39,718 nt of DNA from an uncultured archaeon (GTDB taxonomy: Archaea; Thermoplasmatota; Poseidoniia; MGIII; CG-Epi1): positions 1 to 39,718 of the forward strand of contig CAYSOH010000001.1 of assembly GCA_964432625.1 (NCBI GenBank). Reading direction: 5' to 3'. Shown piece by piece: positions 11,679 to 36,251 of this stretch; the stretch's first letter is position 1; each line of letters starts with the position of its first letter. A program made the translations under genes and the position numbers. A model generated the notes under the pieces. That model was given only the letters and a program-made list of their open reading frames with translations, did not search any database and was not told the DNA's origin.

Positions 11679-12367
11679 TGGCACTCCTCCACAATTTGTC
11701 GGCCCTCTAAAAACAAGTGGCCCCTTTCTTCTGCCCATTCACGGGCTTCTTCTGGTGATAAAGCCTTACCATTATCAGATAACATCTCGCAGCCCAATGC
11801 CACTGGGTTGAGGTCAGCATATTTCATAAGTGCAACAATCAACTCTGTGTGCCCTTGCCTTCCCTTTAGAACTTCTTTATCTGCAATACAGACAGGAACA
11901 TGCCCTGGTATTCGAAAGCTGTTCGCCAAGTTCAATCTTGCTACTTCTTCTGGTAAATTTATAGAATCCTCTACAATTTCTGCAAATGATCTAGCTGTAA
12001 GCGACCTGTCATCATCTGTTATGCCTGTAAAAGTGTCCTTATGGTTTATGAACAAAGAGAATGAAGAGCGTGTATCATATGGCAATGAATGACTTAGCAT
12101 AGTATCAACAGAATCAAATCCTTTGGAATCTCTAATCAATGAACTATACATATCCTGTGCAAAGGGTAAGCCCAACTTCTCCGATGCTAGGTAAGATGAT
12201 GCAAGGAATACCATTCCTCCTCCTTCTTTTCTTAGAAACCTAACGTTGTCTGAATTGACTTGTTTGGCTGAAAAGAATATGTCTGTTTCACCCTCTCTAC
12301 TAGAATCATCGAATATCAGAATTGGATCTCCTCTAGTAAGAATTTTTGAAATATCTTCAATTGGCAA
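11675..12367 (-). CDS. ribB: 3,4-dihydroxy-2-butanone 4-phosphate synthase
   Basis: ILIFDDSSREGETDIFF, GGGMVFLA, SSFSLFINHKDTFTGITDDDR, FRIPGHV, GRQGHTEL. Confidence 0.9.
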   Translation of the reverse strand: MPIEDISKILTRGDPILIFDDSSREGETDIFFSAKQVNSDNVRFLRKEGGGMVFLASSYLASEKLGLPFAQDMYSSLIRDSKGFDSVDTMLSHSLPYDTRSSFSLFINHKDTFTGITDDDRSLTARSFAEIVEDSINLPEEVARLNLANSFRIPGHVPVCIADKEVLKGRQGHTELIVALMKYADLNPVALGCEMLSDNGKALSPEEAREWAEERGHLFLEGRQIVEECQ

Positions 12368-12458
12368 TATACTCTTATTTATCGTTATTTTTATCCCTCA
12401 CAAAAGTTTAACTTTAGTGCTTGCATTAAATAATTGTGTATATACTCAAAAATGAGTA

Positions 12459-13013
12459 TTAAGATAAATCGTAGACTGCTCTATCTAATCTAGCTGAAGA
12501 GGTAGCTTTTTGGCTGATATATCTTGTACAAGAAAGATCTCCTGCAACTAATTTAACTATCATCAAAGAACCTGGGTCTCTATTACAAATTAGGGGATCC
12601 TTATCCGGAGAAGTATAAAGATCATATCCTCCCCATTCCTGCTTCCAACCTTCTGTAAAATCATAAGCTACTACTAGTCTTTCAGCTTCTGATTCCTCAG
12701 CATGAAGGAGGGAATAATCACCGGCAGAATATGAAATATGATTTGTCGATCGGAGCTTTGGTTTCAAACCTGTGGAATCTCTAAGAAACTCTATAAATTC
12801 GGAAGAATTCCAAAAACTCTCAAGAATAGCTTTACCTTCATCACGATTATAATATCCTATTTTCTCTTTTCTACTCAATTTTGACTCTTTGGTATCTGAA
12901 AGCGGTTCTAGAAATTTTGACAGGCGGATAAAAGGGATGTCGCCGGAACCAAAGATTCTTTTCAGATTTAGAAGTGTGGGTTTCTCTAGATAATAGAAAT
13001 TCATCTCAGCCAT
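12459..13013 (-). CDS. OGFOD1/Tpa1/Ofd1 C-terminal (non-catalytic DSBH) domain-like protein
   Basis: GDYSLLHAEE, EGWKQEWGGYDLY and SLMIVKL...TRYISQKA resemble the C-terminal domain of OGFOD1 as I recall it. The ATG overlaps the stop of the catalytic-domain ORF by 8 nt. Confidence 0.5.
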   Translation of the reverse strand: MAEMNFYYLEKPTLLNLKRIFGSGDIPFIRLSKFLEPLSDTKESKLSRKEKIGYYNRDEGKAILESFWNSSEFIEFLRDSTGLKPKLRSTNHISYSAGDYSLLHAEESEAERLVVAYDFTEGWKQEWGGYDLYTSPDKDPLICNRDPGSLMIVKLVAGDLSCTRYISQKATSSARLDRAVYDLS

Positions 13014-13581
13014 GGTACCACCCCGTTACTGTCAATCTCTGTATATCCATCAAGATTTCACTAACCTCATGCCAGGAGTGGTCTGAGACTTCAAACATTA
13101 TCAAAGAATTATACTCGGGAATTATACTGTCAACCAATTTGGATTTGCCTTTATCATCAGCTTCAAATACGTTAAGTGCGCCACCCATTTCTTCAGTGAT
13201 TTCTGGAGTAAGGTGTAAACTGTAGGCAATAATGCGCCCTTCTACCTGATCATCGTGTGGAAGAAGAAAATCTCCTAAACCATAAACGTAAGCGGCCATA
13301 TCTATATTTGATAATTCTTTAACATTGAAAGACTTAGAAACTTTTTCACGCCAAGGTTTGTCGCCTAAATCATCACGTAGAATATTGATTGCTGGATGAT
13401 TGATATCTGTCAATTCCACACTTGCCCAGTAGCTAAACAAATCTGACTCCTTGAAATCGTATTCCAATCCTGCTAGAGCATCAATAACCAAGTCTAAGGT
13501 TGGCGCATCAAGAAAGTCTCGGACGACAACGTGTGGAAACGGCTTTGATTTAATTTTTGGAATTTTGTCTGCGTTACGCAT
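13006..13581 (-). CDS. 2-oxoglutarate/Fe(II) oxygenase, OGFOD1/Tpa1-like catalytic domain
   Basis: PFPHVVVRDFL, DLFSYWASVEL, LLPHDDQVEGRIIAYSLHL (HxD), NSLIMFEVSDHSWHEVSEI (distal His), RLTVTGWYHG. Confidence 0.75.
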   Translation of the reverse strand: MRNADKIPKIKSKPFPHVVVRDFLDAPTLDLVIDALAGLEYDFKESDLFSYWASVELTDINHPAINILRDDLGDKPWREKVSKSFNVKELSNIDMAAYVYGLGDFLLPHDDQVEGRIIAYSLHLTPEITEEMGGALNVFEADDKGKSKLVDSIIPEYNSLIMFEVSDHSWHEVSEILMDIQRLTVTGWYHG

Positions 13582-14530
13582 CGTTCCTCCTTAGCCAGTT
13601 TAACATTCCTTCAACCGAACCCAAGTGTGTAGCTGTTTGATGAACTCCGTGATTCATATCTGTCTTCCTAAGGCCAGGTCTAGCATCAAATAAAATATTG
13701 ACTATTTCATCAACTGAATAATTTTTTCTATGACCTTCTTCGACAATCTCCATCCAAATCTCAAATTCAGATTTTACTTGAGATAACGCTCCTTCGGCTG
13801 GCCTAGGTCCAAAATGTGTATAGTGAATGTATTCCAATTCAAGCTTTGACATTCTGTCAATACTATCAAGTGCTAGATCATGGCGGTAATATCCTGGAGT
13901 TACAGGAAATGAAGTATTCAAATCAGAATACCATAATCCTAGAGAATCACCAACAAACGCCTCATCACCATAAACCCATGTTATGTGATGTGGAGCATGA
14001 CCTGGAGTATGAAGTGCCACCAATGATGTTTTCCCAAGTGACAATTCATAACCATCCTCTGCTGAAATTAGATTTGATTCCGATATTGGAATAGGTTTAC
14101 CATAAAGTTCAGCAATTTTGCCTAAAAAATCTACGCTTCCTTTCCACCAATTATCTATATTCGATACATGTTTGTATGCTTTAGGATGTACAACTGCTTT
14201 AGCATTAGGGCATAAATTCATTATATGTCCACCACCGCCAAAATGATCCAGATGGATGTGTGTAGGTACAACATAATCTACATCTTCTAAACCAATACCT
14301 ATAGAATTTAGGCCTTGTACTAGATTTGAGGTTGAACTAGCGGGGCCTGTCTCTATAAGAACAGTTTTTTCATCTATAATCACATAGACTGATACGAAAT
14401 TCTTCTCTCCATGAGGCATAACATCAAACCAAAACACGCTATCGCTATGTTTGTTTATTGATGGAGACACAAACAATCTATAGAAAAGGGGTTTAAGTTG
14501 ACCGACGGCCTTATAGTGGGCTATTGGCAT
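13574..14530 (-). CDS. MBL-fold metallo-hydrolase
   Basis: [15 protein letters not shown] (HxHxDH), [20 protein letters not shown]. Confidence 0.8.
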
Positions 14531-14550
14531 GTATTAGCCCGTTGAGTCAA

Positions 14551-16149
14551 ATGAAGTACATAATTGTGACCGGCGGTGTCCTTTCAGGCCTAGGTAAAGG
14601 CATAACTTCTTCTTCAACTGGCCTCTTATTACAATGTGCCGGGTATGAAGTCACGGCTGTAAAAATTGATCCTTATCTGAATGTAGATGCTGGAACAATG
14701 AACCCTTATGAACACGGTGAAGTCTTTGTAATGACTGACGGTTCTGAAGTCGATTTAGATCTTGGAAATTACGAAAGATTCTTACGATGTAATCTCACTA
14801 GTGAACACAACATAACTACCGGGAAAGTTTACAAAAAAGTTATAGAAAAAGAGAGGCGTGGTGATTACCTAGGGCAGACTGTACAAATTATACCACATAT
14901 TGTGAGAGAGATTGTAGATGGGATAAAAAATGCAGCAAAGGATGCTAAAGCCGATGTTTGTTTAATAGAATTAGGGGGGACTGTGGGAGACATCGAATCT
15001 ATGCCCTTTATGGAAGCTGCGCGCCTGTTAGGACGTGAGGAGGGACGTGAAAATGTGATGTTCATCCACACAACATTGGTACCTGTCTTGGGTTCAGTTG
15101 GTGAGCAGAAAACAAAACCTACACAGCATTCTGTAAAGGAACTACAGGGACTTGGAATTAGACCTGACGTAATAGTTGGAAGAAGTGACAAAGTCCTAGA
15201 CGAGGATATAGCATCCAAAATCGCATTTTTTGCAGATATACCGAGAGAAGCTGTAATTTCAGCACCTGATGCGAAGAGTATCTATGAAGTTCCATTAATA
15301 TTCCTAAAACAAAAATTTCCTGAATTGATAGAAAACAGACTTGGTCTCAAAACCAAGAAACCTGATGTAAAAAAATGGACAGATTTTGTAAATCGTATAA
15401 CAAATGGTGGTGAAGAGGTTGAAATTGCAATTATTGGAAAATACACTTCCCTAAAGGATTCCTATATCTCACATGAAGAAACACTGAGATATGCTGGTGC
15501 TGTTTTAGGTTGCAAAGTCAAGATAAGATGGATTGAAGCCCCAGATCTTGAAGATTCAGGGAGCACAGAGATGCTTGAAGGAGTACATGGTGTTATTGTT
15601 CCAGGAGGATTTGGAAAGAGAGGATCTGAAGGTAAAATAATGAGTGCGGGGTGGGCAAGAGAAAATCAAGTACCATACTTGGGTGTCTGTTTCGGTTTCC
15701 AATTAGCTACTGTAGAATTTTGTAGAAATGTATTAGGTCTAAAAGGTGCTAATTCCTCAGAATTAGACCCAGATGGACCGCACTCCGTTGTTGATATTCT
15801 TCCTGAACAAGAAGGCATAAAGGATATGGGAGCCACAATGCGACTTGGTGATCATGAAGTGATTGTCTCAAATGGAAAAGCAAAAGAACTATACGGTAAA
15901 GATGTCATATCCGAGAGACATCGGCACAGATATGAAATAAATCCTGAATATATTGAAAAAATAGAATCTAATGGGATGAAATACACAGGAAGAAATTCAA
16001 GTGGTAGGAGGATGGAAATACTAGAATTGGAAGATCATCCATACTTTGTTGCCTCTCAATTTCATCCTGAATTTAAGTCACGACCAGATGAACCGTCACC
16101 ATTGCATCTCGGTCTAGTTAAGGCAGCTCTGGAGAAAAAGAATAACTGA
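14551..16149 (+). CDS. pyrG: CTP synthase
   Basis: [48 protein letters not shown], GATase block GVCFGFQ...HRHRYE. I use ATG 14551; the track TTG at 14524 would overlap the divergent gene. Confidence 0.95.
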
Positions 16150-27291: not shown

Positions 27292-27301
27292 TTTTTATAT
27301 A
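27292..27301 (+). promoter_or_regulatory. TATA-box candidate upstream of the Reeler-like / Rieske-cyt b gene string
   Basis: tttttatata lies about 76 nt upstream of ATG 27377 and downstream of the track start at 27272. This favours the 27377 start. Confidence 0.3.
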
Positions 27302-27376
27302 GCAGATACTGTCCTCTCAAATCACCTATTATGGGGGCGTAATTTGTCTATATCTGACAACAGGAATTACAGTCTG

Positions 27377-28048
27377 ATGGCACTGCTGATTCTAACAGCT
27401 TTGGTAGTTGGTAAAAGTGCTCAGGGATGGCCTGAAGGAGGCGATGCTGCAAATGGAGGAGATTCCTGGGTAGAAGACGAAGTGGTCCCTAAAGGATGTT
27501 ATTGTCACAATGATGTGCAGATTGAGGAGGGGATGTACAGTTTAGTTGGGTTACCAAACAAATACATTCCAGAAACTGTTTACAACATAACACTTACTGC
27601 CAATGACACCAATGTAGGACGTGCAGACGACGACAACGGACGATATGGAGGATTCCTAGTTGTAGTCACAGAAGGTGAATTTGTTCCAGATGATAACTAT
27701 TGGATTGGGGGTGATGGAGAGTACCTTTCACATAGTGCAGACAACAATGCAGTTAGGAGTTGGGATTTCCAATGGACTGCACCGACTGAAGGCACTGGTG
27801 ATGCATTGTTCACTATCTATTTCAATATCGTTAATGGAGGCGACTCTTCCTCTGGTGATCAGTGGTCCTTCTTTAGCGTAGTTTCTCTTGGAACTCCACA
27901 AGAAGCTTCAGGAGAAGTATCCATACATGAATTGGGTGTTACCTTGATGCAATACTGGATTGGACTGCTAGGAATAGCAGTTGTTCTTTTATCGGTTCTG
28001 ATATCTTACATAGTCATGAGAGGAGGTAGTTCACATTACCGAGGTTAA
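27377..28048 (+). CDS. secreted Reeler-like domain protein with C-terminal TM anchor
   Basis: Signal peptide MALLILTALVVGKSAQG. GCYCH..., YSLVGLPNKYIPETVYNITL, YGGFLVVV, LSHS, WDFQWTAPTEGTGDALF follow the Reeler-domain consensus order. C-terminal helix LLGIAVVLLSVLISYIV. Confidence 0.6.
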   Translation: MALLILTALVVGKSAQGWPEGGDAANGGDSWVEDEVVPKGCYCHNDVQIEEGMYSLVGLPNKYIPETVYNITLTANDTNVGRADDDNGRYGGFLVVVTEGEFVPDDNYWIGGDGEYLSHSADNNAVRSWDFQWTAPTEGTGDALFTIYFNIVNGGDSSSGDQWSFFSVVSLGTPQEASGEVSIHELGVTLMQYWIGLLGIAVVLLSVLISYIVMRGGSSHYRG

Positions 28049-28169
28049 CGAGATTATAGAAAAAGTCGCAAAGGGTGAACTCAATGCTGAGGATGCTCAG
28101 AAGATACTGGGAACATACAAAGACGAGGATCTTGGAAAAGAATTAAGAAATGTTCCTGGTAAAGAACAA

Positions 28170-28400
28170 TTGGAAATATTTGGAATAATTCTGATTCTAT
28201 TGGTATTAGAGTTGATGTATGATGCTCTCTTCATTTACGGAATACTAGAGAACTGGGATCAGCAATTCCTTTCATTCACACTTGCTATGGCTTTTTTGAT
28301 TTTTGGACTAATGATTGACTTCTACAGAAGATCATTCATGCCTGATATTCTTGAGGTGAAAAAGAGAAGGAGGAAAGTTATAACCAAACTGGAGAGATAA
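28170..28400 (+). CDS. small two-helix membrane protein; the true start may lie upstream (see findings)
   Basis: TTG start in the track. The frame is open for 50 further codons upstream. It ends 2 nt before the Rieske ATG. Confidence 0.4.
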   Translation: MEIFGIILILLVLELMYDALFIYGILENWDQQFLSFTLAMAFLIFGLMIDFYRRSFMPDILEVKKRRRKVITKLER

Positions 28401-28402
28401 TT

Positions 28403-29077
28403 ATGGACATTACACGTAGAGATTTCTTGAAAGGCGCTATCGGGCTTGCAGGAGCTGGGATGGCAGGAGCATTGACAGTTCCAGCACTAAAAACGCTTCT
28501 TCCTCCACCTGTAACCAGATGTAATGAGGATGATGCACACGAAACTTTGACGTATAAAGGTGCAAGCGGAAAATGGTACGAGAGTAAAGATGGTGAGGTT
28601 GCTAAGAAAGGGGATTTCAAACTCTGGGATGCTGCTCTGGTTAACTGGGGTCCAAAAGGTCTAGAAGAAGAATTGGGATCTTGTGAAATTCAACTAGCGC
28701 TCGTTAAAGTTCCTACAGAAGCCAACATGAAGGAACTAGGTGTTGAGGATGATGACGGAAACAGTACGATGATGGCGTACCACACTTACAAATGTCCACA
28801 TCTTTGCTGTAAACCTGTTTTCACATCTGAAGGAACCAGTGCAATCAGTGGTGCAGATTATGAGAATATGTTTCTCTGCCCATGTCATCTTTCATTGTTT
28901 GATCCTGTCTCTGTAAATGAAGAAACTGATGAATTAGGAAGAAAGGTAATGACTGCCGAATTATTGGAAGGACCTGCTCCATATGGTCTACCGGTAGTGC
29001 CTATTGCTGAAAAAGATGGAGGATTGATAGGTCTGACCACTCATATAGAGTGGCTGAAATATTGTGGACAAGGATGA
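28403..29077 (+). CDS. Rieske [2Fe-2S] protein with Tat signal
   Basis: Twin-arginine signal MDITRRDFLKGAIGLAGAG. Cluster boxes CPHLCC and CPCHLSLF. Confidence 0.9.
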   Translation: MDITRRDFLKGAIGLAGAGMAGALTVPALKTLLPPPVTRCNEDDAHETLTYKGASGKWYESKDGEVAKKGDFKLWDAALVNWGPKGLEEELGSCEIQLALVKVPTEANMKELGVEDDDGNSTMMAYHTYKCPHLCCKPVFTSEGTSAISGADYENMFLCPCHLSLFDPVSVNEETDELGRKVMTAELLEGPAPYGLPVVPIAEKDGGLIGLTTHIEWLKYCGQG

Positions 29078-30027
29078 TGAAAGTTAACAAAGTCTTAGCA
29101 GTGGTGATTGGATGTTTAGCTCTACTGGCCGTACCAGCAAGTGCAGAAACTCCACTGATGGAAGAGTTGATGAAGAAATATACCTTCCCTCTGATTTTCT
29201 TATCCTTAGCTGGAGCTGTTGCAGGAGTCGCATATCTTTACTTGACTGGATTACTGCCAAAAGTTATGTTTGAATCTTGGAAATGGGTCGATGAAAGATT
29301 TGCATTACATAAATATTTTTCAATGGCTAAAAGGGAATATTACTCTGTTGTATACACTCTGCTGCCTGCAACTGGAAGAACTATGCCACAATCACATACT
29401 GAGAGATATAATGTCAAAGCGGTATGGTACTGGTACCCATTCTACTCTTTAGGTGGGTTATCCTTCTTTGCATATATCGTGCTTACTATAACAGGAATCT
29501 ATCTAGGTTTCTATTATGTTCCAGATGGTGAATTCATAACCGATCCAGAAACTGGAGAGAAAACATCTGGAGCTTACAAGTCGATGGAACTGATAATGAC
29601 ACAAGTGACATTTGGATACATCATAAGGGCTGTACACCACTGGTCTGCTCATTTCATGGTTGCCTCGGTTTTCCTTCACATGATGAGAGTTTATTTCGTT
29701 GGAGCATACAGAAATCCAAGGGAAGTAAATTGGATACTTGGAACACTCCTGCTTGGAATTACAATTTTCTTTGGATATACTGGTTACCTTCTACCTTGGG
29801 ACGAATTGGGGTTCGCAGCAGGTTCAATCGGATTAGAAATGGCCACTTCAATACCTGCAATGGGGCCCCTAATGGCACAGATCATATTTGGAGGTACACA
29901 ACTTACTGGAGATACGGTTACCAGAATGTACTGGCTACATATCTTTGTTCTGCCTTTAATTGGAACAGTCTTAATAATTGTCCATATGGCACTTGTTTGG
30001 ATACAAGGGGAGGCTGAACCTCACTAA
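29074..30027 (+). CDS. cytochrome b (b6-like N-terminal half) with extra N-terminal signal-like helix
   Basis: Helix B VHHWSAHFMVASVFLHM has 13 residues between His ligands. Helix D LHIFVLPLIGTVLIIVH has 14, which is the b6-type spacing. The ATG overlaps the Rieske TGA (ATGATGA). Confidence 0.9.
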   Translation: MMKVNKVLAVVIGCLALLAVPASAETPLMEELMKKYTFPLIFLSLAGAVAGVAYLYLTGLLPKVMFESWKWVDERFALHKYFSMAKREYYSVVYTLLPATGRTMPQSHTERYNVKAVWYWYPFYSLGGLSFFAYIVLTITGIYLGFYYVPDGEFITDPETGEKTSGAYKSMELIMTQVTFGYIIRAVHHWSAHFMVASVFLHMMRVYFVGAYRNPREVNWILGTLLLGITIFFGYTGYLLPWDELGFAAGSIGLEMATSIPAMGPLMAQIIFGGTQLTGDTVTRMYWLHIFVLPLIGTVLIIVHMALVWIQGEAEPH

Positions 30028-31082
30028 TGAACGAAGATAATGCTACCGAAATGATAAATGAATATCAAGATGAGCAAGTGGCTCTTGATACGATAAGTAA
30101 AATTGAGAATCGAGAAGAGCATTCCGTCTTAGAAGCTGATATGGTAAAGGGTGAACCTCTTTATCCACATGAAATGACACGGGATGGTGTTTTGACTATG
30201 TATATCATGGCTCTATTCTTCTTCTTAGCCGCTTTTGTTCCTCCGCCTTTACACAAGGCTGCAGACCCGACTGCTGTAACTCCTTTCCCACCTCCATTAC
30301 CTGATTGGTACTTATTGTGGGCATTTGGCTGTCTAAAAGTGGCTCAGGATATTGAAATGAATCTTCCACTTTCAATGATACCTTTCCTTGGATTAGAGGA
30401 CATAGAACTAATGTTAATGAGTGCAAAAGTCTGGGGAACTTTGGTTCAAGGTCTCATTTTTGGACTTGTTGTAGCCGTACCGTTTATTGACAGAGCAATA
30501 GGTACCTTTATTGATCCTCAATATGGAGACGTAATCAATAGAGGTCATGAAAGAAGACCTATTGAGGATCCTGTCCGTGCAGCTATTGGTGTTTATGGAA
30601 TTGCAATGGTCATAATGCTTTCTGTTTTCTCAATAAACGCCAATATCGCAATGTATTATCCAGAAATCGATACTAACGTGCTTACACAAATTACACTATG
30701 GGGACCAATTGGTTGCGCACTAATCACTTATCTTTTCTTAGACCGGAGAAGGTCTGAAGGTGCAAAACCTCTATCAGACGAAGAAAGATTTGATCTATAT
30801 ACAAATGGAATAACTGACAGAAGAATGCAGAGGATTTATGAATTCAAACTGAACAGATGCTACCAATGCGGTCTCTGTGATGATATTTGCCCTGTTAGAG
30901 ACATGGAGGGAGAACATGAACTCAATATTATTTTCAATACATTCCAGAATGAACACGATGGTGTCGCCATGTGGTCTTGTATAACTTGTGGAATGTGTAC
31001 TGCCGTTTGCCCACAGAACATTGAGTATGTTGACTATGTTCTAGAGCAAAGGGCGTTAGCGACTGCAGGAGTGAGCTCATGA
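30027..31082 (+). CDS. cytochrome b C-terminal half / subunit IV-like protein fused to a 2x[4Fe-4S] (HdrC/GlpC-N-like) domain
   Basis: Qo-site motif PLPDWYLLWAFG (a PEWY variant), four predicted TM helices, then CYQCGLCDDICP and CITCGMCTAVCP. TAATG overlap with the upstream gene. Confidence 0.8.
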   Translation: MNEDNATEMINEYQDEQVALDTISKIENREEHSVLEADMVKGEPLYPHEMTRDGVLTMYIMALFFFLAAFVPPPLHKAADPTAVTPFPPPLPDWYLLWAFGCLKVAQDIEMNLPLSMIPFLGLEDIELMLMSAKVWGTLVQGLIFGLVVAVPFIDRAIGTFIDPQYGDVINRGHERRPIEDPVRAAIGVYGIAMVIMLSVFSINANIAMYYPEIDTNVLTQITLWGPIGCALITYLFLDRRRSEGAKPLSDEERFDLYTNGITDRRMQRIYEFKLNRCYQCGLCDDICPVRDMEGEHELNIIFNTFQNEHDGVAMWSCITCGMCTAVCPQNIEYVDYVLEQRALATAGVSS

Positions 31083-31966
31083 GCAGAACCAAACCATATT
31101 CGAGAACCATCCCGCACCCACTTTTTGAGAGACTAATTGTGGAAGATGCAATGAAAGAAGAGAAAGAACCATGGAAGCCAGAAAGACCACATGAGTATGG
31201 GTACTTCCCTGGATGTGTTGATTTCATGGATGTAGAAGTAAAATTCACACATCTAAACAAAGGAGATGCTGACCATGCATCCATTGCTGCAGCTTCGATT
31301 AAGCTTCTCAACTATGCTGATATTGATCCACTCATATTGGATATGAATATCTTCAAATGTTCAGGTCATGATCAACTGTGGCAGGGTCAACTAGAGGTCT
31401 TTGACACACTAAAAGAGCACAACATGCGAAGGTTAAAGGAATCTGGAATCAAGATAATTACTTGTTCTTGTGCCGAATGCTATCGTACATTCGCTGTAGA
31501 TTATGATTTGCCTGGAACTCTGGGAATAAAAGTTGAACATATTACTCAAACTCTACAAGGAAGGGGACTGAAATTCAAAGCACCTGAAGATGTTACTGTT
31601 GCCTACCATGATCCATGCAGATTAGGAAGGATGATGGGAGAGTACGAGGCTCCCCGAGACTTAATCCAGTTAGTAGACGGTGCAAAAATGGTTGAACTTG
31701 AAAACAACAAAGAGCGAGCATTATGTTGTGGAGTTTCATCAATGATGTACTGTAATGATGCAACAAAAGCAGTTAGACGAAAGCGTCTGGATCAAGGTAC
31801 TGATGCTGGAATTGACATTATGCTTGGTGGTTGTCCTAAATGTTACATGCACATGCAATGCATGCTAAATGAGGAAAGAATGAATCCTGAGGAAGGCCAT
31901 CATCATGATTATGAGATGATGGACCTTATGCAATTTCTGGTTGCTTGTTTGGAGGAAAAAAGCTAG
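31079..31966 (+). CDS. two-CCG-domain cysteine-rich protein (HdrB / HdrD-C / GlpC-C / SdhE-like)
   Basis: YFPGC...KCSGHD...CSCAECY and YHDPCRLGR...LCCGVS...GGCPKCY form two CCG-type repeats. ATGA overlap with the upstream gene. Confidence 0.8.
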   Translation: MSRTKPYSRTIPHPLFERLIVEDAMKEEKEPWKPERPHEYGYFPGCVDFMDVEVKFTHLNKGDADHASIAAASIKLLNYADIDPLILDMNIFKCSGHDQLWQGQLEVFDTLKEHNMRRLKESGIKIITCSCAECYRTFAVDYDLPGTLGIKVEHITQTLQGRGLKFKAPEDVTVAYHDPCRLGRMMGEYEAPRDLIQLVDGAKMVELENNKERALCCGVSSMMYCNDATKAVRRKRLDQGTDAGIDIMLGGCPKCYMHMQCMLNEERMNPEEGHHHDYEMMDLMQFLVACLEEKS

Positions 31967-31989
31967 TGGCAGAAATCGATAAGAACTTC

Positions 31990-32796
31990 ATGAGCACATA
32001 TCAGAAGGTAGCCACTCATGATGGCGATTCAGAACCGATACAGATATGGGCTAAGGATTCTGATTCTTACGGAGGTGTGGGAACTGACAAACTAGGTATC
32101 TGGGGAAGTGTTGTAGCCATTGATTTTGACATATGTGTCGCTGATGGGGCTTGCGTTGATGCTTGTCCAGTCGATGTTTTTGATTGGATTGATACTCCAA
32201 ACCATCCTGCTTCTGATACGAAAGCAATTGGCGTTCGAGAACCTGATTGCATTGTTTGTAGAGCTTGTGAAGAAGTGTGCCCTGTAGACGCGATACTGAT
32301 TACAGATCCAGGAGATATCGGGTCGGGATCTCAGGCTGAAAGCGCAGTGAAGGAAGAAGCGACTAATGAAGTGCCTGCTGAAGCCAAAACTGAGACACCT
32401 GTGGCTGTTGCATCAGATAGTACCTCTCTTTTCTTTCACAAACCGAATAAATGGCTTAACAGAGCAAAAGAGGTTCTCGATAAAGAAGAATTACCTTCTA
32501 CTGGAATTGAAAAAGCAAAGGATATGTTTAAGGATTTAAGAAAACAAACATTAGACGCGCTTCCACGAGGTAAGGATTACATTGCCTTAGTGGACAACGA
32601 AAAATGTATTGGTTGCACTCAATGTGTCTACTTCTGTAATTTTGCCTCAATAGATATGATCACTTGGGATTTACAAGCTAGAACCTCACAATTTGAATCA
32701 AAGAAAGCATTGATTCTGGAAGATACTTGTACGGGATGCACTTTGTGTGCATTTGCTTGCCCAGTTGAAGCCATTACTATGGAAGCAAAAATTTAA
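31990..32796 (+). CDS. two-domain ferredoxin (Sulfolobus Zn-ferredoxin-like 7Fe domain + linker + 2x[4Fe-4S] domain)
   Basis: LGIWGSVVAIDFDICVADGACVDACPVDVFDW...HPASD...CIVCRACEEVCPVDAI, a linker of about 100 aa, then CIGCTQCVYFCN and CTGCTLCAFACPVEAI. I use ATG 31990; the track TTG at 31945 overlaps the upstream gene. Confidence 0.85.
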   Translation: MSTYQKVATHDGDSEPIQIWAKDSDSYGGVGTDKLGIWGSVVAIDFDICVADGACVDACPVDVFDWIDTPNHPASDTKAIGVREPDCIVCRACEEVCPVDAILITDPGDIGSGSQAESAVKEEATNEVPAEAKTETPVAVASDSTSLFFHKPNKWLNRAKEVLDKEELPSTGIEKAKDMFKDLRKQTLDALPRGKDYIALVDNEKCIGCTQCVYFCNFASIDMITWDLQARTSQFESKKALILEDTCTGCTLCAFACPVEAITMEAKI

Positions 32797-32815
32797 TTCT
32801 AAGAATTGTGGGTCA

Positions 32816-33340
32816 ATGACGAAAAAATCCGAAGTTGATTATCTTTTTTATTCTATTATTGGAGCAATATGGTTTGCTGTTTTGTATGCAATCTGGGCCG
32901 CTACTGAAGCTGGAGATCCTGGTTATGGACAAGCTGCATTTCTTGTTGGTGGAATAATTGCTACCATTTATATGTTCAAAAGAAAACGGGAAAGGCCTAG
33001 ATTTAATGAAGATGAAATAGAAATTCCCGAAGCTCAATTTTCGGTAGAAATACCTGATGAAGGAGATAAATATGTATTCAGTGAGAAAGCCTATCGGAAA
33101 ATTACATGGGCAACAACGCTTTTTGCCCTGATAGCAATAAGTATTTTCTTAGAAACTATACTGATAAGAAAAAATGTAGGAATGGGACTGATTTTATTAG
33201 TATTGGGAATTATCGTATTCCTCTTACCCATACTAATTCCTGTTAAAGACGACATTGAAACTTTGAAGAAAAGGGCTGAAAAAGAAAGGACAAAGGCTTG
33301 GCATAAAGGTAAATTCGACCAGTCTAGTGAAGAAGAGTGA
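32816..33340 (+). CDS. four-helix membrane protein (hypothetical)
   Basis: MTKKSEVDYLF followed by two helix pairs separated by a charged loop. ATG 32816 avoids overlap with the ferredoxin gene. GTGA overlap with cca. Confidence 0.5.
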   Translation: MTKKSEVDYLFYSIIGAIWFAVLYAIWAATEAGDPGYGQAAFLVGGIIATIYMFKRKRERPRFNEDEIEIPEAQFSVEIPDEGDKYVFSEKAYRKITWATTLFALIAISIFLETILIRKNVGMGLILLVLGIIVFLLPILIPVKDDIETLKKRAEKERTKAWHKGKFDQSSEEE

Positions 33341-34518
33341 ACAAAATACTTCAGAAAGTTCTGGAAAGAGTCAAGCCTGACAAGAAAGAGGAAGACAGAA
33401 TAGCGGAATTAGCACAAGATTTGCTTAATGAAGCACAAATGAATAGTTCCAATTCTAACGCACTAATAGTAGGTTCAGTAGCAAAAGGAACTTTTCTGAA
33501 AGATGCCGACATAGACCTCTTTCTCAAATTCAAAGAAGGAACTGATCTCAAGAAGAAAGGCCTGTTAGAAGCTAGAAAGATTCTACCAGAGGGAAGGGAA
33601 CTTTATGCACAACATCCCTATTTACGGGGAGAGAAAAATGGAATCGGACTAGATGTAGTGCCTTGTTATGAAATCAAGGACCCTTCAAAACCAGTATCTG
33701 CTGTTGATAGAACACCTTTTCACACTGAGTGGGTAATGGAAAACATTGATGGGTTGGAGGATGAAATAAGACTTACCAAACAATTTCTAAAGGGTGCAGG
33801 AGCGTATGGTGCTGGAGCTGCTATTGGAGGATTTTCAGGATATCTAGTAGAAATCCTCTGCATAAGGAGTAAAGGTTTTACAAATCTTCTTGAAGAAATA
33901 AAAGGATGGAGACCTCCTGTCCAATTAGGTGAAATCAAAGGTGCGCCTGCCTCTCCGATAATGCTTCCTGATCCTGTTGATAGTGGGAGAAATGTGGCAG
34001 CTGGTGTAACTCTAAGGGGACTTGGAGCTGCTATTCTAGCCTCTAAAGCATTCTTAGAAAATCCATCAATTGATTTCTTCTTTCCAAAGAAAAAGGAGAG
34101 AGTGGCCAAAGGACATGTTACTACAGTTGTAATTCCACATCCAGGAGGAAACGAAGAAAGTGTATTACCATGGCTCCAGAAACAGGGTAGGAAAATCTAC
34201 AGTGCTGTAACTGAATTCGAACCTATTGCTTGGAATGTTAATCTAAGTGAGAAAGGATTTGTTGTTCTTGAAACTGCGACTGTTGAACTGCCAGATATTG
34301 TCCCCCACAAAGGTCCTGCTCCTTGGGATGATGGAGCTATGGATTTCCTTAGAAAATATCCAGACGCCTCATTGAGTGGAGATAGACTGGAAATAGGAAA
34401 ACCACCTAGACATTCTAAGATTGAGGGAGTCATCCTTGAATTGTTACCGAATGCTGTTGTTAAATCTGGGCTGGAAAAAGGCGCTGAACCAGTACAAAGA
34501 GTCCCCTGGTTAGATTAA
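33337..34518 (+). CDS. cca: CCA-adding enzyme (archaeal class I tRNA nucleotidyltransferase)
   Basis: GSVAKGTFLKDADIDLFL, HPYLRG, DVVPCY, SAVDRTPFH, GAGAYGA...GGFSGYLVEIL, DPVDSGRNVAA. GTG start. Confidence 0.9.
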   Translation: MNKILQKVLERVKPDKKEEDRIAELAQDLLNEAQMNSSNSNALIVGSVAKGTFLKDADIDLFLKFKEGTDLKKKGLLEARKILPEGRELYAQHPYLRGEKNGIGLDVVPCYEIKDPSKPVSAVDRTPFHTEWVMENIDGLEDEIRLTKQFLKGAGAYGAGAAIGGFSGYLVEILCIRSKGFTNLLEEIKGWRPPVQLGEIKGAPASPIMLPDPVDSGRNVAAGVTLRGLGAAILASKAFLENPSIDFFFPKKKERVAKGHVTTVVIPHPGGNEESVLPWLQKQGRKIYSAVTEFEPIAWNVNLSEKGFVVLETATVELPDIVPHKGPAPWDDGAMDFLRKYPDASLSGDRLEIGKPPRHSKIEGVILELLPNAVVKSGLEKGAEPVQRVPWLD

Positions 34519-34533
34519 AAATAAAAATTGGGT

Positions 34534-34595
34534 AGATGGGAGACAAAGCTCCCATTTACCTGGTGAACGGGGCTTTGCAGCCCCGCTCTATTTTC
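34534..34595. terminator. pair of GC-rich hairpins flanked by T/A tracts between convergent genes (bidirectional terminator candidate)
   Basis: Hairpin 1 is atgggag-acaaag-ctcccat (34536-34555). Hairpin 2 is cggggct-ttgc-agccccg (34568-34585), followed by ctctatttt. On the minus strand, hairpin 1 is followed by caatttttattttt. Confidence 0.45.
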
Positions 34596-35184: not shown

Positions 35185-35727
35185 TCATTCAAATACAATA
35201 TCGTAACCGATTACGTCACCGGTTGGCTCGAACTTCATAAGGAATGAAAAACCAGACAAATCATCAATATCTTCTAAATCTGAATTAGCCTCAGACGGAA
35301 GGAATTCAAATTTGTCACCGGGGCTCAATTTACCATTGAAATCTACATCAGTAAATATTACTCCATGGCCATGACCTTGTTTAGTACCATAGATATCGGA
35401 AACTAAGCCATCAGTCTTAGTGTTTCCCTGTACATCCAGTAGATACCAGTGTACCGAGTTTACGGAAACTTGTGGGTTAATTTTGACGATCTGAACCGTC
35501 CATACACCACTTCCGTCTTCGCTTGCTATCATACTGCCAGTTGGTGCACTCTTGGTTGTACCCTGAGGGTACCATCCATACGTTATGGAATAATAAAATA
35601 CTAATAGAATTATGAGGATAGCCAGAAGGCCTACTGCAATTCCTGTAACTTTTAAAATTTCTGTAATCTTGGAAAGCCCGACAACACTCTTAACTGAATC
35701 TAAGTCTTTCTCATCACTATCAGTCAT
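35185..35727 (-). CDS. membrane-anchored paralogue of the 34607..35110 pilin head domain (no class-III signal)
   Basis: The N-terminus MTDSDEKDLDS...GIAVGLLAILIILLVFYY lacks the VSPVIG motif. Its head domain shares a 51-aa block (APTGSMIASEDGSG...TDGLVSD) that is 100 percent identical to the pilin. ATGA overlap with the upstream gene. Confidence 0.65.
   Translation of the reverse strand: MTDSDEKDLDSVKSVVGLSKITEILKVTGIAVGLLAILIILLVFYYSITYGWYPQGTTKSAPTGSMIASEDGSGVWTVQIVKINPQVSVNSVHWYLLDVQGNTKTDGLVSDIYGTKQGHGHGVIFTDVDFNGKLSPGDKFEFLPSEANSDLEDIDDLSGFSFLMKFEPTGDVIGYDIVFE
35198..35239. repeat. 42-nt perfect repeat, copy B
   Basis: Identical to 34623..34664. Confidence 0.9.
35402..35562. repeat. 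161-nt near-perfect repeat, copy B
   Basis: Identical to 34827..34987 except for 35549. Confidence 0.9.
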
Positions 35728-36251
35728 TTCAAACGATCTCTACGTAAAACAAGAGACCCCAGTATAGCCAAGAGAACAGTTATGCTAGCTCCAATCCATG
35801 CTATAGATGATGCCCAATCAGGTACATTAGTCTCTGAATGTGCCTCTATCTCTGGTGGCCTTATGACTGAACTATAGGAAGACCAAGTACCTCCATCCTG
35901 ATCAAAAAAGATTATTGACAATTCGGCCTCACCCTCTCCTAATTCAAATGATTCTACCGGAGCTTGCCAATGAAAAGTCCAACCCTCAGTACTATCTGAA
36001 AAACTTAAGTGATGAACATCTGACTCAAATTCGGCCGTCTCACTCAAAGTCCCATTGGTTACTGTAATATTTACGGATGAAATCGCAGAATAATTACTAG
36101 CTGTCAAAACTATCTCATACGATGATCCTGTAGCATAGTGTAAATCATCAGGTAAACCATCGACTCTGTAAACCGGATCATCGGCCTGTGAAAAGGGAAT
36201 AAACAGACAAATTGTCAGCATTACAAGCAGACTCTTTCTAACAGTATACAT
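35724..36251 (-). CDS. secreted Reeler-like domain protein with C-terminal TM anchor (paralogue of 27377..28048, lacks the CxCH head)
   Basis: Signal peptide MYTVRKSLLVMLTICLFIPFSQA. YRVDGLPDDLHYATGSSYEIVLTAS, HHLSFS and WTFHWQAPVESFELGEGEAEL parallel the other Reeler-like ORF. C-terminal helix AWIGASITVLLAILGSLVL. Confidence 0.55.
   Translation of the reverse strand: MYTVRKSLLVMLTICLFIPFSQADDPVYRVDGLPDDLHYATGSSYEIVLTASNYSAISSVNITVTNGTLSETAEFESDVHHLSFSDSTEGWTFHWQAPVESFELGEGEAELSIIFFDQDGGTWSSYSSVIRPPEIEAHSETNVPDWASSIAWIGASITVLLAILGSLVLRRDRLK

Follow-up and report, generated by a model that had tools for sequence, protein, structure and literature searches.

Cytochrome b fused to an HdrC-like iron-sulfur domain in a Rieske/cytochrome b operon of Marine Group III archaea: a candidate cytoplasmic electron port

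We analysed a stretch of 39,718 nucleotides from an uncultured archaeon (contig CAYSOH010000001.1 of assembly GCA_964432625.1; hereafter the window), with attention to five plus-strand genes at 28403-32796 that encode a Rieske protein, the two halves of a split cytochrome b, a subunit with CCG motifs and a ferredoxin subunit. The window has a G+C content of about 40%, and its closest relatives are metagenome-assembled and single-cell genomes of Marine Group III (Poseidoniia). The C-terminal half of the cytochrome b runs in frame into an iron-sulfur (Fe-S) domain of the HdrC type, and we consider it quite likely that the locus encodes one integrated complex with a cytoplasmic Fe-S wire.

Gene Content of the Operon

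The open reading frame (ORF) listing of the window gives the five genes as plus-strand ORFs, and their junctions bore out the overlaps by which an earlier note on this DNA had chained the first four. The ATG of gene 2 at 29074 overlaps the TGA of the Rieske gene (29075-77) within ATGATGA, the gene 2/gene 3 junction is TAATG (30025-29) and the gene 3/gene 4 junction is ATGA (31079-82). Gene 5 proved to be chained too, by an in-frame GTG at 31966 that gives TAGTG behind GGAGG, with TTG 31945 as the alternative start. The predicted operon comprises eight genes (27377-33340): a head subunit, a DUF7318 protein, the five genes named above and a downstream membrane protein. Searches by tblastn with the window proteins revealed a constant gene order in 37 species-level Marine Group III genomes (head, small membrane protein, Rieske, cytochrome b N-half, cytochrome b C-half/Fer4, CCG, ferredoxin, membrane protein, CCA-adding enzyme), so that the CCG and ferredoxin genes are conserved together with the cytochrome b genes.

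Gene 1 (28403-29077, plus strand) encodes a Rieske [2Fe-2S] protein exported by the twin-arginine translocation (Tat) system and carrying CPHLCC and CPCHLSLF, in agreement with the earlier reading. Pfam matched the TAT signal, and the Pfam Rieske model gave no match in gene 1; the cluster-binding region was recognised by NCBIfam Rieske_proteo (1e-9), and a profile of eight orthologues from six lineages matched only bc1/b6f Rieske subunits in the PDB (best 4e-9). CPHLCC, CPCH and a C-terminal W..YCG are invariant among the orthologues. Box II (CPCHLSLF, 28880-28903) holds a Ser/Phe redox-tuning pair, which is Ser/Tyr in distant relatives. The anammox Rieske protein Kustd1480 has the same Ser/Phe pair and a midpoint potential of +335 mV, and by analogy the pair in the window hints at a high-potential Rieske cluster.

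Gene 2 (29074-30027, plus strand) is a cytochrome b N-half of the b6 type (Pfam Cytochrome_B, 1e-35), as had been proposed, with four haem-ligand histidines (His188/His202 and His289/His304) in the b6-type 13/14 spacing and two extra N-terminal transmembrane helices that leave its orientation unchanged. At the position of the haem-ci cysteine (CxGG; helix A, WYPFYSLGG, about 29440-29466) Ser is found in the window and in 29 further epipelagic loci of Marine Group III, and the cysteine is kept in eight deeper Marine Group III loci (L027-L031, L033, L034 and L037) and in all other lineages examined. As a separate observation, the N-half ends in AEPH (30013-30027), with His as its last residue, which is true of the window and of each of the five distant lineages; this terminus faces the cytoplasm, where the Fe-S domain must dock, and is a candidate ligand or contact.

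The Cytochrome b/Iron-Sulfur Fusion and Its Relatives

Gene 3 joins two parts in one frame, and its earlier description as a cytochrome b C-half with a PDWY motif, four helices and an HdrC-type tail was confirmed in each respect. The first part (30027-30842, plus strand) supplies four hydrophobic helices, E, F, G and H, together with the Qo motif PDWY at residue 92 (nucleotides 30300-30311), which is kept in all 38 sequences compared. Pfam by itself does not recognise this C-half in the window; residues 38-235 match the C-half of actinobacterial QcrB (NCBIfam QcrB positions 231-410, 9e-10), and QcrB in the PDB was matched as well. The second part (30843-31082, plus strand) is a cytoplasmic HdrC-like 2x[4Fe-4S] domain that continues the frame of helix H and spans residues 273-345, with CxxCxxCxxxCP motifs at residues 278-289 and 318-329. 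It matched Pfam Fer4_8 (3e-10), HdrC TIGR03290 (1e-8; 35 bits, below the cut-off of 160) and HdrC in the PDB (7e-7).

The position of this tail relative to the membrane follows from helix parity. Across six architectures the number of hydrophobic helices from helix E to the Fe-S domain is 4, 4, 4, 4, 6 and 8, and because this count is always even, the fused Fe-S domain is predicted to be cytoplasmic, on the side of the cytochrome b N-terminus, as the earlier note had expected from four helices. An RRR cluster follows helix H, and Fe-S domains that are not exported must sit in the cytoplasm.

The fusion was found intact in 130 protein clusters at 61-99% identity and in all genomes compared, including the single-cell assemblies AG-343 and AH-321; its presence in close relatives had been set as a check on the original proposal. 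An exhaustive profile search of 1.8 billion representatives returned few distant relatives. Of ten that were scanned, six carry the Fer4 dicluster and CCG domains on the same chain, after a membrane region that matches the cytochrome b C-half, and in three of these single-chain proteins Pfam Cytochrom_B_C itself scores. The operon type recurs in Marine Group II, in soil Thermoplasmata-like lineages and in others, and single-chain proteins of cytochrome b C-half, Fer4 and CCG domains occur in Marine Group II, in loci L038 and L044 and elsewhere. The Marine Group II form (Candidatus Poseidoniales/Poseidoniaceae) is a single protein of 932 residues with all three modules. L038 has the order Reeler-like protein, DUF7318, Rieske, cytochrome b, triple fusion and double ferredoxin, and L043 and about 20 soil/sediment loci have cupredoxin, DUF7318, Rieske, cytochrome b, cytochrome b C-half/Fer4, CCG, ferredoxin and a small transmembrane protein. 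An HdrA-like flavoprotein comes after the fusion in L044 and L059, and L044 adds a polyferredoxin and an MvhD/FlpD-like protein (L044 9909-13074; L059 3339-4052). L039, in a metagenome-assembled genome labelled "Halobacteria archaeon", has only the dicluster domain fused, with a cytochrome c head.

These alternative fusions, as read from gene structure, are Rosetta-stone evidence for one complex. The earlier statement that the Fe-S/CCG module is tied to a Rieske/cytochrome b scaffold was strengthened by them, since Marine Group II and three further lineages have genes 3 and 4 joined into a single protein. It might be argued that an ordinary Rieske/cytochrome b complex merely lies beside unrelated Fe-S genes and that the fusion is an artefact of annotation or assembly, for which one can cite the general caveat that all data come from metagenome assemblies. 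This explanation is extremely improbable and effectively refuted, as the fusion is in frame in more than 100 independent protein clusters, the 37 genomes and the single-cell genomes, and other fusions join all three modules. A chance neighbourhood is excluded because the arrangement is kept in the 37 genomes and the roughly 20 soil/sediment loci and because natural fusions exist.

Several features of the relatives deserve mention in their own right. The cytochrome b N-halves of L038 (898-3174) and L044 (5426-7924) carry an N-terminal extracellular extension of 450-550 residues with Big_5 (Ig-like) domains. The arrangement of L044 has a flavin-bifurcation-type module attached to the Rieske/cytochrome b operon. 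In the soil lineage of L043, two GlcD/GlcE-like FAD_binding_4 genes lie directly downstream of the operon (12222-15236, minus strand), which might point to a flavoprotein donor or might be coincidental.

The CCG and Ferredoxin Subunits

Gene 4 (31079-31966, plus strand) encodes a non-cubane-cluster-binding subunit of the HdrB/HdrD-C/EtfD kind. It is the most conserved gene of the operon, at 78-99% identity among the Marine Group III genomes. Pfam CCG matched it in two stretches (5e-18), in line with the two repeats reported earlier, and only one of the two repeats is canonical: the second motif reads C...CCG...CPKC, and the first is degenerate (KCSG...CSCAEC), the second Cys of CCG being absent. 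Judged by curated models, gene 4 is nearest to the thiol-oxidising C-terminal part of TfrB (NCBIfam, 8e-26), followed by LdhH, GlpC, TmcB, DsrK and HdrB, all of these matches lying far below cut-off (HdrB models 20-22 bits against cut-offs of 345-450). The best solved match was mycobacterial EtfD (9ojn_A, 2e-13), with HdrB at 3e-6.

In EtfD, electrons run from haem b through two cubanes to a non-cubane [4Fe-4S] and a linear [3Fe-4S] cluster; the linear cluster is due to CTG in place of the first CCG, and neither of the two unusual clusters, both of them buried, is catalytic. Aligned to 9ojn_A, C94-S95 of gene 4 correspond to C538-T539 and C131/C134 to C581/C584, so that the four Cys of the first motif align with the ligands of the EtfD linear cluster, and the second motif is conserved. 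Among orthologues of gene 4 the distal-cluster ligands (window residues 94-95 and 129-134) switch between KCSG+CSCAEC, KCTG+CSCAEC, KCCG+CAEG, KCCG+CAEC and KCTG+CAEC, a compensatory-looking exchange within one orthologous family, and the second motif is invariant. The study of EMO described the same tendency, with electron-transfer members sharing the proximal cluster and varying in the distal one, and the membrane partners named there were tri-, di- or monohaem anchors of the HdrE type only; the non-cubane domain of EMO itself can be assembled in E. coli. Because EtfD is the best match, the first motif is degenerate and the distal ligands vary, the CCG module is more likely a predicted relay than a catalyst of the heterodisulfide type.

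The same comparison bears on the disulfide substrate that the earlier note had considered. As a disulfide reductase or thiol oxidase resembling HdrDE or DsrMK, the complex would use its second CCG cluster to reduce or form a cytoplasmic disulfide or trisulfide carrier with electrons of the b chain. The completeness and invariance of the second motif would suit such chemistry, as would the thiol-oxidising TfrB part as the best NCBIfam match, the additional matches to DsrK and HdrB, and a GshA gene near the Marine Group II locus. We nevertheless regard it as quite improbable, given that the family matches all fall far short of curated cut-offs, that HdrB-type catalysis uses two conserved non-cubane clusters where the first motif here is degenerate and variable, that the operon holds neither a candidate substrate protein (DsrC, lipoate-binding protein) nor genes for coenzyme M/coenzyme B, and that, as EMO/EtfD show, clusters of this sort can serve electron transfer alone in aerobes. 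The earlier suggestion is weakened to this extent, gene 4 being nearer to EtfD than to HdrB.

Gene 5 (31966-32796, plus strand, from the GTG start or from TTG 31945) begins with a domain like the 7Fe zinc ferredoxins, which a linker joins to a 2x[4Fe-4S] domain at the C-terminus, much as the earlier note had proposed. Residues 41-121 match the zinc 7Fe ferredoxin of Sulfolobus (1xer) at 1e-26 and contain CxxDxxCxxxCP for a [3Fe-4S] and CxxCxxCxxxCP for a [4Fe-4S] cluster, and the C-terminal domain has two additional four-Cys motifs. The whole-protein model of zinc 7Fe ferredoxin stays below cut-off for gene 5 because of the fusion. What gene 5 has in common with the ferredoxin subunits of L038 and L043 is its C-terminal domain, and the RnfB model TIGR01944 scored 56.5 bits against a cut-off of 68.7, a similarity of the dicluster domain only.

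The Head Subunit and the Small Membrane Subunits

Family searches of 28403-32796 detected no cytochrome c1/f, cupredoxin or flavoprotein, as had been stated earlier, and this holds for the five genes alone; the gene string was incomplete, and a candidate acceptor subunit lies upstream. The head-subunit gene (27377-28048, plus strand) encodes a signal peptide, a Reeler-like beta-sandwich, an invariant G-C-x-C-H and a C-terminal transmembrane anchor. The ORF lister places its start at ATG 27272; ATG 27377 is more likely the better start, and a TATA-like TTTTTATATA lies upstream of it at 27293-27302. The protein matched NCBIfam choice-of-anchor V at 5e-19 and Pfam Reeler weakly. Its AlphaFold2 (AF2) model reached a predicted local distance difference test (pLDDT) score of 65.8, with low confidence in the CxCH loop; Foldseek with this model returned only Reeler/Ig-like sandwiches, with Reeler domains of F-spondin on top (7.5e-5), and no match to a cupredoxin, cytochrome f or DOMON domain.

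Homologues of the head subunit are 218-231 residues long, the gene is syntenic in all loci, and G-C-x-C-H is the only universally conserved polar motif. The Reeler-like head with this motif is found in Marine Group II/III and L044, and the same operon slot is occupied by a monohaem cytochrome c in L039 (5425-5934) and by a type-1 cupredoxin in L043 (5488-6168) and soil loci L060-L079. The anchor of the window head subunit is homologous to that of the L039 cytochrome c (blastp, 3.9e-6) and resembles the cupredoxin anchor of L043/L060-79. Because it shares both the slot and a similar anchor with the cytochrome c and cupredoxin of relatives, the head subunit is probably a functional analogue of cytochrome c1/f with a swapped head, and a candidate high-potential acceptor. 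We considered a copper site of the type-1 or CuA-like kind for the head and dropped it, as distant homologues conserve C-x-C-H and not the His/Met candidates. A paralogue of the head protein lies at 35724-36251 (minus strand) beside archaeal pilin genes (27% identity, E 1e-8); it has a C-terminal anchor of the same style and no CxCH, the alignment beginning just after the CxCH region.

The DUF7318 subunit (28035-28400, plus strand) has an N-terminal SHOCT-like helix, two transmembrane helices and a basic tail. The ORF lister gave it as 76 residues from TTG 28170; the conserved reading frame begins 45 codons before the first canonical start (ATG/GTG/TTG), and the extended protein matched Pfam DUF7318 at 47 bits (cut-off 27). 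About half of the genomes have no canonical start at the conserved N-terminus. ATT 28035 is invariant in 32 related loci and preceded by conserved AGAGGAGG, and the gene, which probably starts at this ATT, overlaps the final 14 nucleotides of the head-subunit gene. We had considered a +1 frameshift joining the head subunit to DUF7318, and rejected it because the invariant ATT follows a conserved GGAGG and because the two genes are separate in other lineages and start with ATG/GTG. The DUF7318 gene stands directly upstream of the Rieske gene in each of the other lineages examined.

At the other end of the operon, a membrane protein (32813-33340, plus strand) identified by synteny has a C-terminal two-helix hairpin with conserved Glu and Pro. 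By hhalign (probability 85%, E 5.9e-6) this hairpin matched the small protein encoded behind the ferredoxin gene in other lineages, a link that blastp of the protein (dn197) against the small downstream proteins had failed to show (E 0.075); the gene for a small protein of the sm110 type is present in 17 of 21 soil loci. From position and hairpin, the 32813-33340 protein is probably an extra subunit.

Neighbouring Genes

Next in order comes a CCA-adding enzyme gene (33337-34518, plus strand; assigned by Pfam and synteny), which overlaps the preceding operon gene by 4 nucleotides and is adjacent in every Marine Group III locus long enough to show adjacency. It is probably co-transcribed with the operon and functionally unrelated. 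The strongest terminator-like hairpin of the region, and the only strong one, lies 3' of this gene (34568-34585, plus strand) and probably marks the 3' end of the putative transcription unit. Family searches of the window neighbours (CTP synthase, pilus genes, a thioredoxin-reductase-like gene, a tRNA methyltransferase, S15, a GT-C glycosyltransferase and the CCA enzyme) offered no hint of operon function.

Comparison With Known Systems

The locus has features of the bc1/b6f superfamily, namely an exported Rieske protein, two His pairs on helices B and D and a Qo motif of the PEWY type (PDWY); it has no c1/f, and the slot that relatives fill with cytochrome c or cupredoxin holds the anchored Reeler-like protein, a candidate acceptor. 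With cytochrome b6f it shares the point at which cytochrome b is split and the 13/14 His spacing, and its relatives keep the CxGG haem-ci Cys. However, subunit IV of b6f has three helices and no Fe-S domain, whereas the window has four helices and a fused dicluster; cytochrome f and a chlorophyll/carotenoid context are missing from the window, and the ci cysteine, unlike in b6f, has been lost in the window clade.

On the side of the Fe-S module, HdrDE and DsrMK likewise wire a dihaem membrane cytochrome b to two cubanes and one or more cytoplasmic CCG non-cubane clusters. Their membrane subunit is of the NarI/HdrE type, without Rieske protein or Qo/Qi sites, and their CCG site is catalytic, whereas the partner in the window is a Rieske-type cytochrome b. 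Compared with HdrBC/HdrD, the window has the two CxxCxxCxxxCP motifs but lacks two complete CCG motifs, the first being KCSG. EtfD of mycobacteria (PDB 9ojn) and EMO of Syntrophus share with the predicted wire the haem b, two cubanes, a proximal non-cubane cluster, a variable distal cluster and the C[ST]G distal motif, and they serve an aerobe as a non-catalytic link through which a cytoplasmic carrier reduces menaquinone. They differ in being a single polypeptide with an HdrE-like five-helix haem domain and an electron-transfer flavoprotein (ETF) as partner, where the window has a Rieske/cytochrome b membrane part and a ferredoxin.

QmoC of sulfate reducers also combines a membrane cytochrome b with an HdrC-like Fe-S domain and works with HdrA-like flavoproteins; its membrane part is HdrE-like, and it has no Rieske protein. 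The HdrA-like genes that follow the fusion in L044 and L059, and the MvhD-like gene of L044, recall QmoABC. The window misses defining features of b6f, HdrDE, EtfD/EMO and RnfB.

Together with EtfD/EMO and HdrDE, the anammox Rieske/cytochrome b complexes are the nearest precedents for the function. These complexes, Kuste4569-4574 and Kustd1480-1485 of Kuenenia stuttgartiensis, resemble the window in a b6-like split cytochrome b, a Rieske protein and Fe-S-carrying subunits on the negative (n) side of the membrane. They have been proposed to pass b-chain electrons to a cytoplasmic acceptor by quinol-based bifurcation, and have a high-potential Rieske protein with Ser/Tyr or Ser/Phe. Their n-side module, however, is an FAD/NAD(P) oxidoreductase, and that of the window an HdrC/HdrB-like cubane and non-cubane module, fused covalently to cytochrome b, plus a ferredoxin; on the positive (p) side, multihaem cytochromes c contrast with a Reeler-like protein, in an aerobic heterotrophic archaeon as host. 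In Candidatus Angelarchaeales, another order of Thermoplasmatota, a plastocyanin-like gene precedes those for Rieske, cytochrome b, hdrD-like and rnfB-like proteins, and Diamond et al. 2022 (PMC9038741) remarked, in one sentence of genomic interpretation, that reduced ferredoxin may feed into complex III. The gene order in soil loci L060-L079 is exactly that one. Their account does not extend to the fusion of cytochrome b with the Fe-S domain, the DUF7318 and small transmembrane subunits, the head swapping or the Marine Group II/III versions.

Within the library that we searched, that single sentence was the only relevant mention of the gene neighbourhood, and no paper was found that describes, or reports experiments on, the joining of cytochrome b to an Fe-S domain, its forms in Marine Group II/III, the DUF7318 subunit or head swapping. 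The earlier opinion that the architecture is uncharacterised thus stands insofar as no characterised, named complex was found, and needs qualifying by the Angelarchaeales neighbourhood and the anammox precedent. The component families (Rieske/cytochrome b, HdrC/HdrB-type module, 7Fe ferredoxin) are known, and the concept is precedented.

Direction of Electron Flow

Taken as a whole, the locus may encode a split b6-type Rieske/cytochrome b quinol oxidase with a built-in cytoplasmic electron port, a proposal for which we see an even chance. The chain would connect the Qi pocket and haem bH, joined in relatives by haem ci, with the two cubanes of gene 3, the CCG clusters and the four clusters in gene 5. 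Structures of EtfD/EMO and models of HdrDE have a wire of this kind, in which haem b is followed by two cubanes, a non-cubane cluster and the partner. Such a wire would in principle be reversible. If electrons enter by it in these aerobic (photo)heterotrophs, ferredoxin reduced by 2-oxoacid oxidoreductases, or an equivalent cytoplasmic donor, would hand them to gene 5, and they would travel on by way of gene 4 and the tail of gene 3 to reduce quinone at bH/Qi. Quinol would then be oxidised at Qo (PDWY), with one electron going to the Rieske protein, the Reeler-like head subunit and a terminal oxidase, and the other returning to bH. Complex III would in this way admit low-potential electrons, in a respiratory and hard-wired parallel to the route from ferredoxin to Qi that has been proposed for cytochrome b6f, where, in an idea quoted in the literature, haem cn at the n-side receives electrons from ferredoxin.

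Input is the direction that we tentatively favour, at not quite or at best even chances. It is preferred because a ferredoxin-type subunit is the conserved partner, because Marine Group III adds to it a domain similar (1e-26) to a physiological Sulfolobus ferredoxin, because relatives retain the n-side CxGG cysteine of haem ci, and because HdrA/MvhD-like partners in other lineages would use quinone as a high-potential sink. It is also preferred because Marine Group II/III are described as aerobic heterotrophs and because Diamond et al. 2022 suggested likewise for Angelarchaeales; the orphan RnfB and lineage-specific complex III that Tully 2019 reports for Marine Group II are counted on the same side. 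Several observations weigh against the picture as drawn. The cytochrome b of the window itself lacks the haem-ci cysteine. A Ser/Phe Rieske cluster combined with a low-potential quinone would, by analogy, favour a very low-potential b chain, and hence bifurcation. As to the wire, the residue at the position of the blocking His of EtfD is Glu in gene 4, and, with the second CCG motif fully canonical, that cluster may be catalytic. Finally, the AF2 model of gene 3, built on a 16-sequence alignment, is unreliable (pLDDT 51) and served for helix counting only.

The opposite direction rests on an identical architecture. In quinol-based electron bifurcation, one electron from Qo would go to the Rieske protein and head, and the other through bL and bH into the Fe-S wire and on to ferredoxin or another low-potential cytoplasmic acceptor. 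The anammox complexes are a published precedent for an exit on the n-side, the Ser and Phe of the window Rieske protein are those of Kustd1480 (+335 mV) where relatives have Ser and Tyr, and loss of haem ci in the window clade could reflect reduced quinone reduction at Qi. But the aerobic heterotrophs of Marine Group II/III have no evident need for a low-potential reductant from quinol, and the electron would have to be driven against the membrane potential to the negative side and to reach a potential as low as about -400 mV. Moreover, the HdrA/MvhD-like modules of sister lineages normally donate toward the CCG side, and the domain attached in gene 5 copies a ferredoxin that normally carries electrons off 2-oxoacid oxidoreductases. 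The ferredoxin of Sulfolobus and Thermoplasma is such a carrier, taking electrons away from these enzymes. Bifurcation is accordingly rated as rather unlikely, and similarly low is our estimate for a quinone-based bifurcase or confurcase that would link quinol, a high-potential acceptor and ferredoxin, with a novel Reeler-like CxCH redox head, interchangeable with cytochrome c or cupredoxin, as that acceptor. Of the bifurcating or confurcating module that the earlier note had inferred, the wired architecture is upheld; as to direction, ferredoxin input is physiologically more plausible in an aerobic heterotroph than ferredoxin reduction driven by quinol, which is still a rival to be taken seriously.

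Input could also come from a flavoprotein. Here the complex would be a quinone oxidoreductase of the EtfD/EMO/GlpC/GlcF type grafted on cytochrome b, its CCG clusters accepting electrons from ETF, as supplied by beta-oxidation and amino-acid catabolism, or from a glycolate/lactate-type flavoprotein and passing them to bH/Qi, with gene 5 as an accessory. EtfD is the best solved match and has the same variant of the distal motif, ETF docks on the non-cubane domain of EMO, Marine Group II has been reported to rely on fatty-acid and protein degradation, and the two GlcD/E-like FAD_binding_4 genes adjoin the operon in L043. Those two genes, however, are on the opposite strand and in one lineage only, no ETF or other flavoprotein gene occurs in the window operon or the 37 Marine Group III loci, and what is conserved instead is a dedicated ferredoxin subunit. 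We therefore judge a flavoprotein donor to be improbable and retain ferredoxin-level input as the preferred direction.

Significance

Marine Group II/III archaea are globally abundant and uncultured, and what genome surveys have said of them is confined to a lineage-specific complex III and an orphan RnfB, as in Marine Group II (Tully 2019). The locus extends the cubane plus non-cubane (CCG) module, solved so far on HdrE-type haem anchors only, to a Rieske/cytochrome b scaffold, and if the proposed function is true, it would provide a natural hard-wired model for the disputed ferredoxin-to-Qi route of b6f and for the quinone-based bifurcation of anammox bacteria. If ferredoxin-level electrons enter complex III, or are made by it, this would explain how ferredoxin is reoxidised in these aerobic archaea, and estimates of their respiratory energy yield would change.

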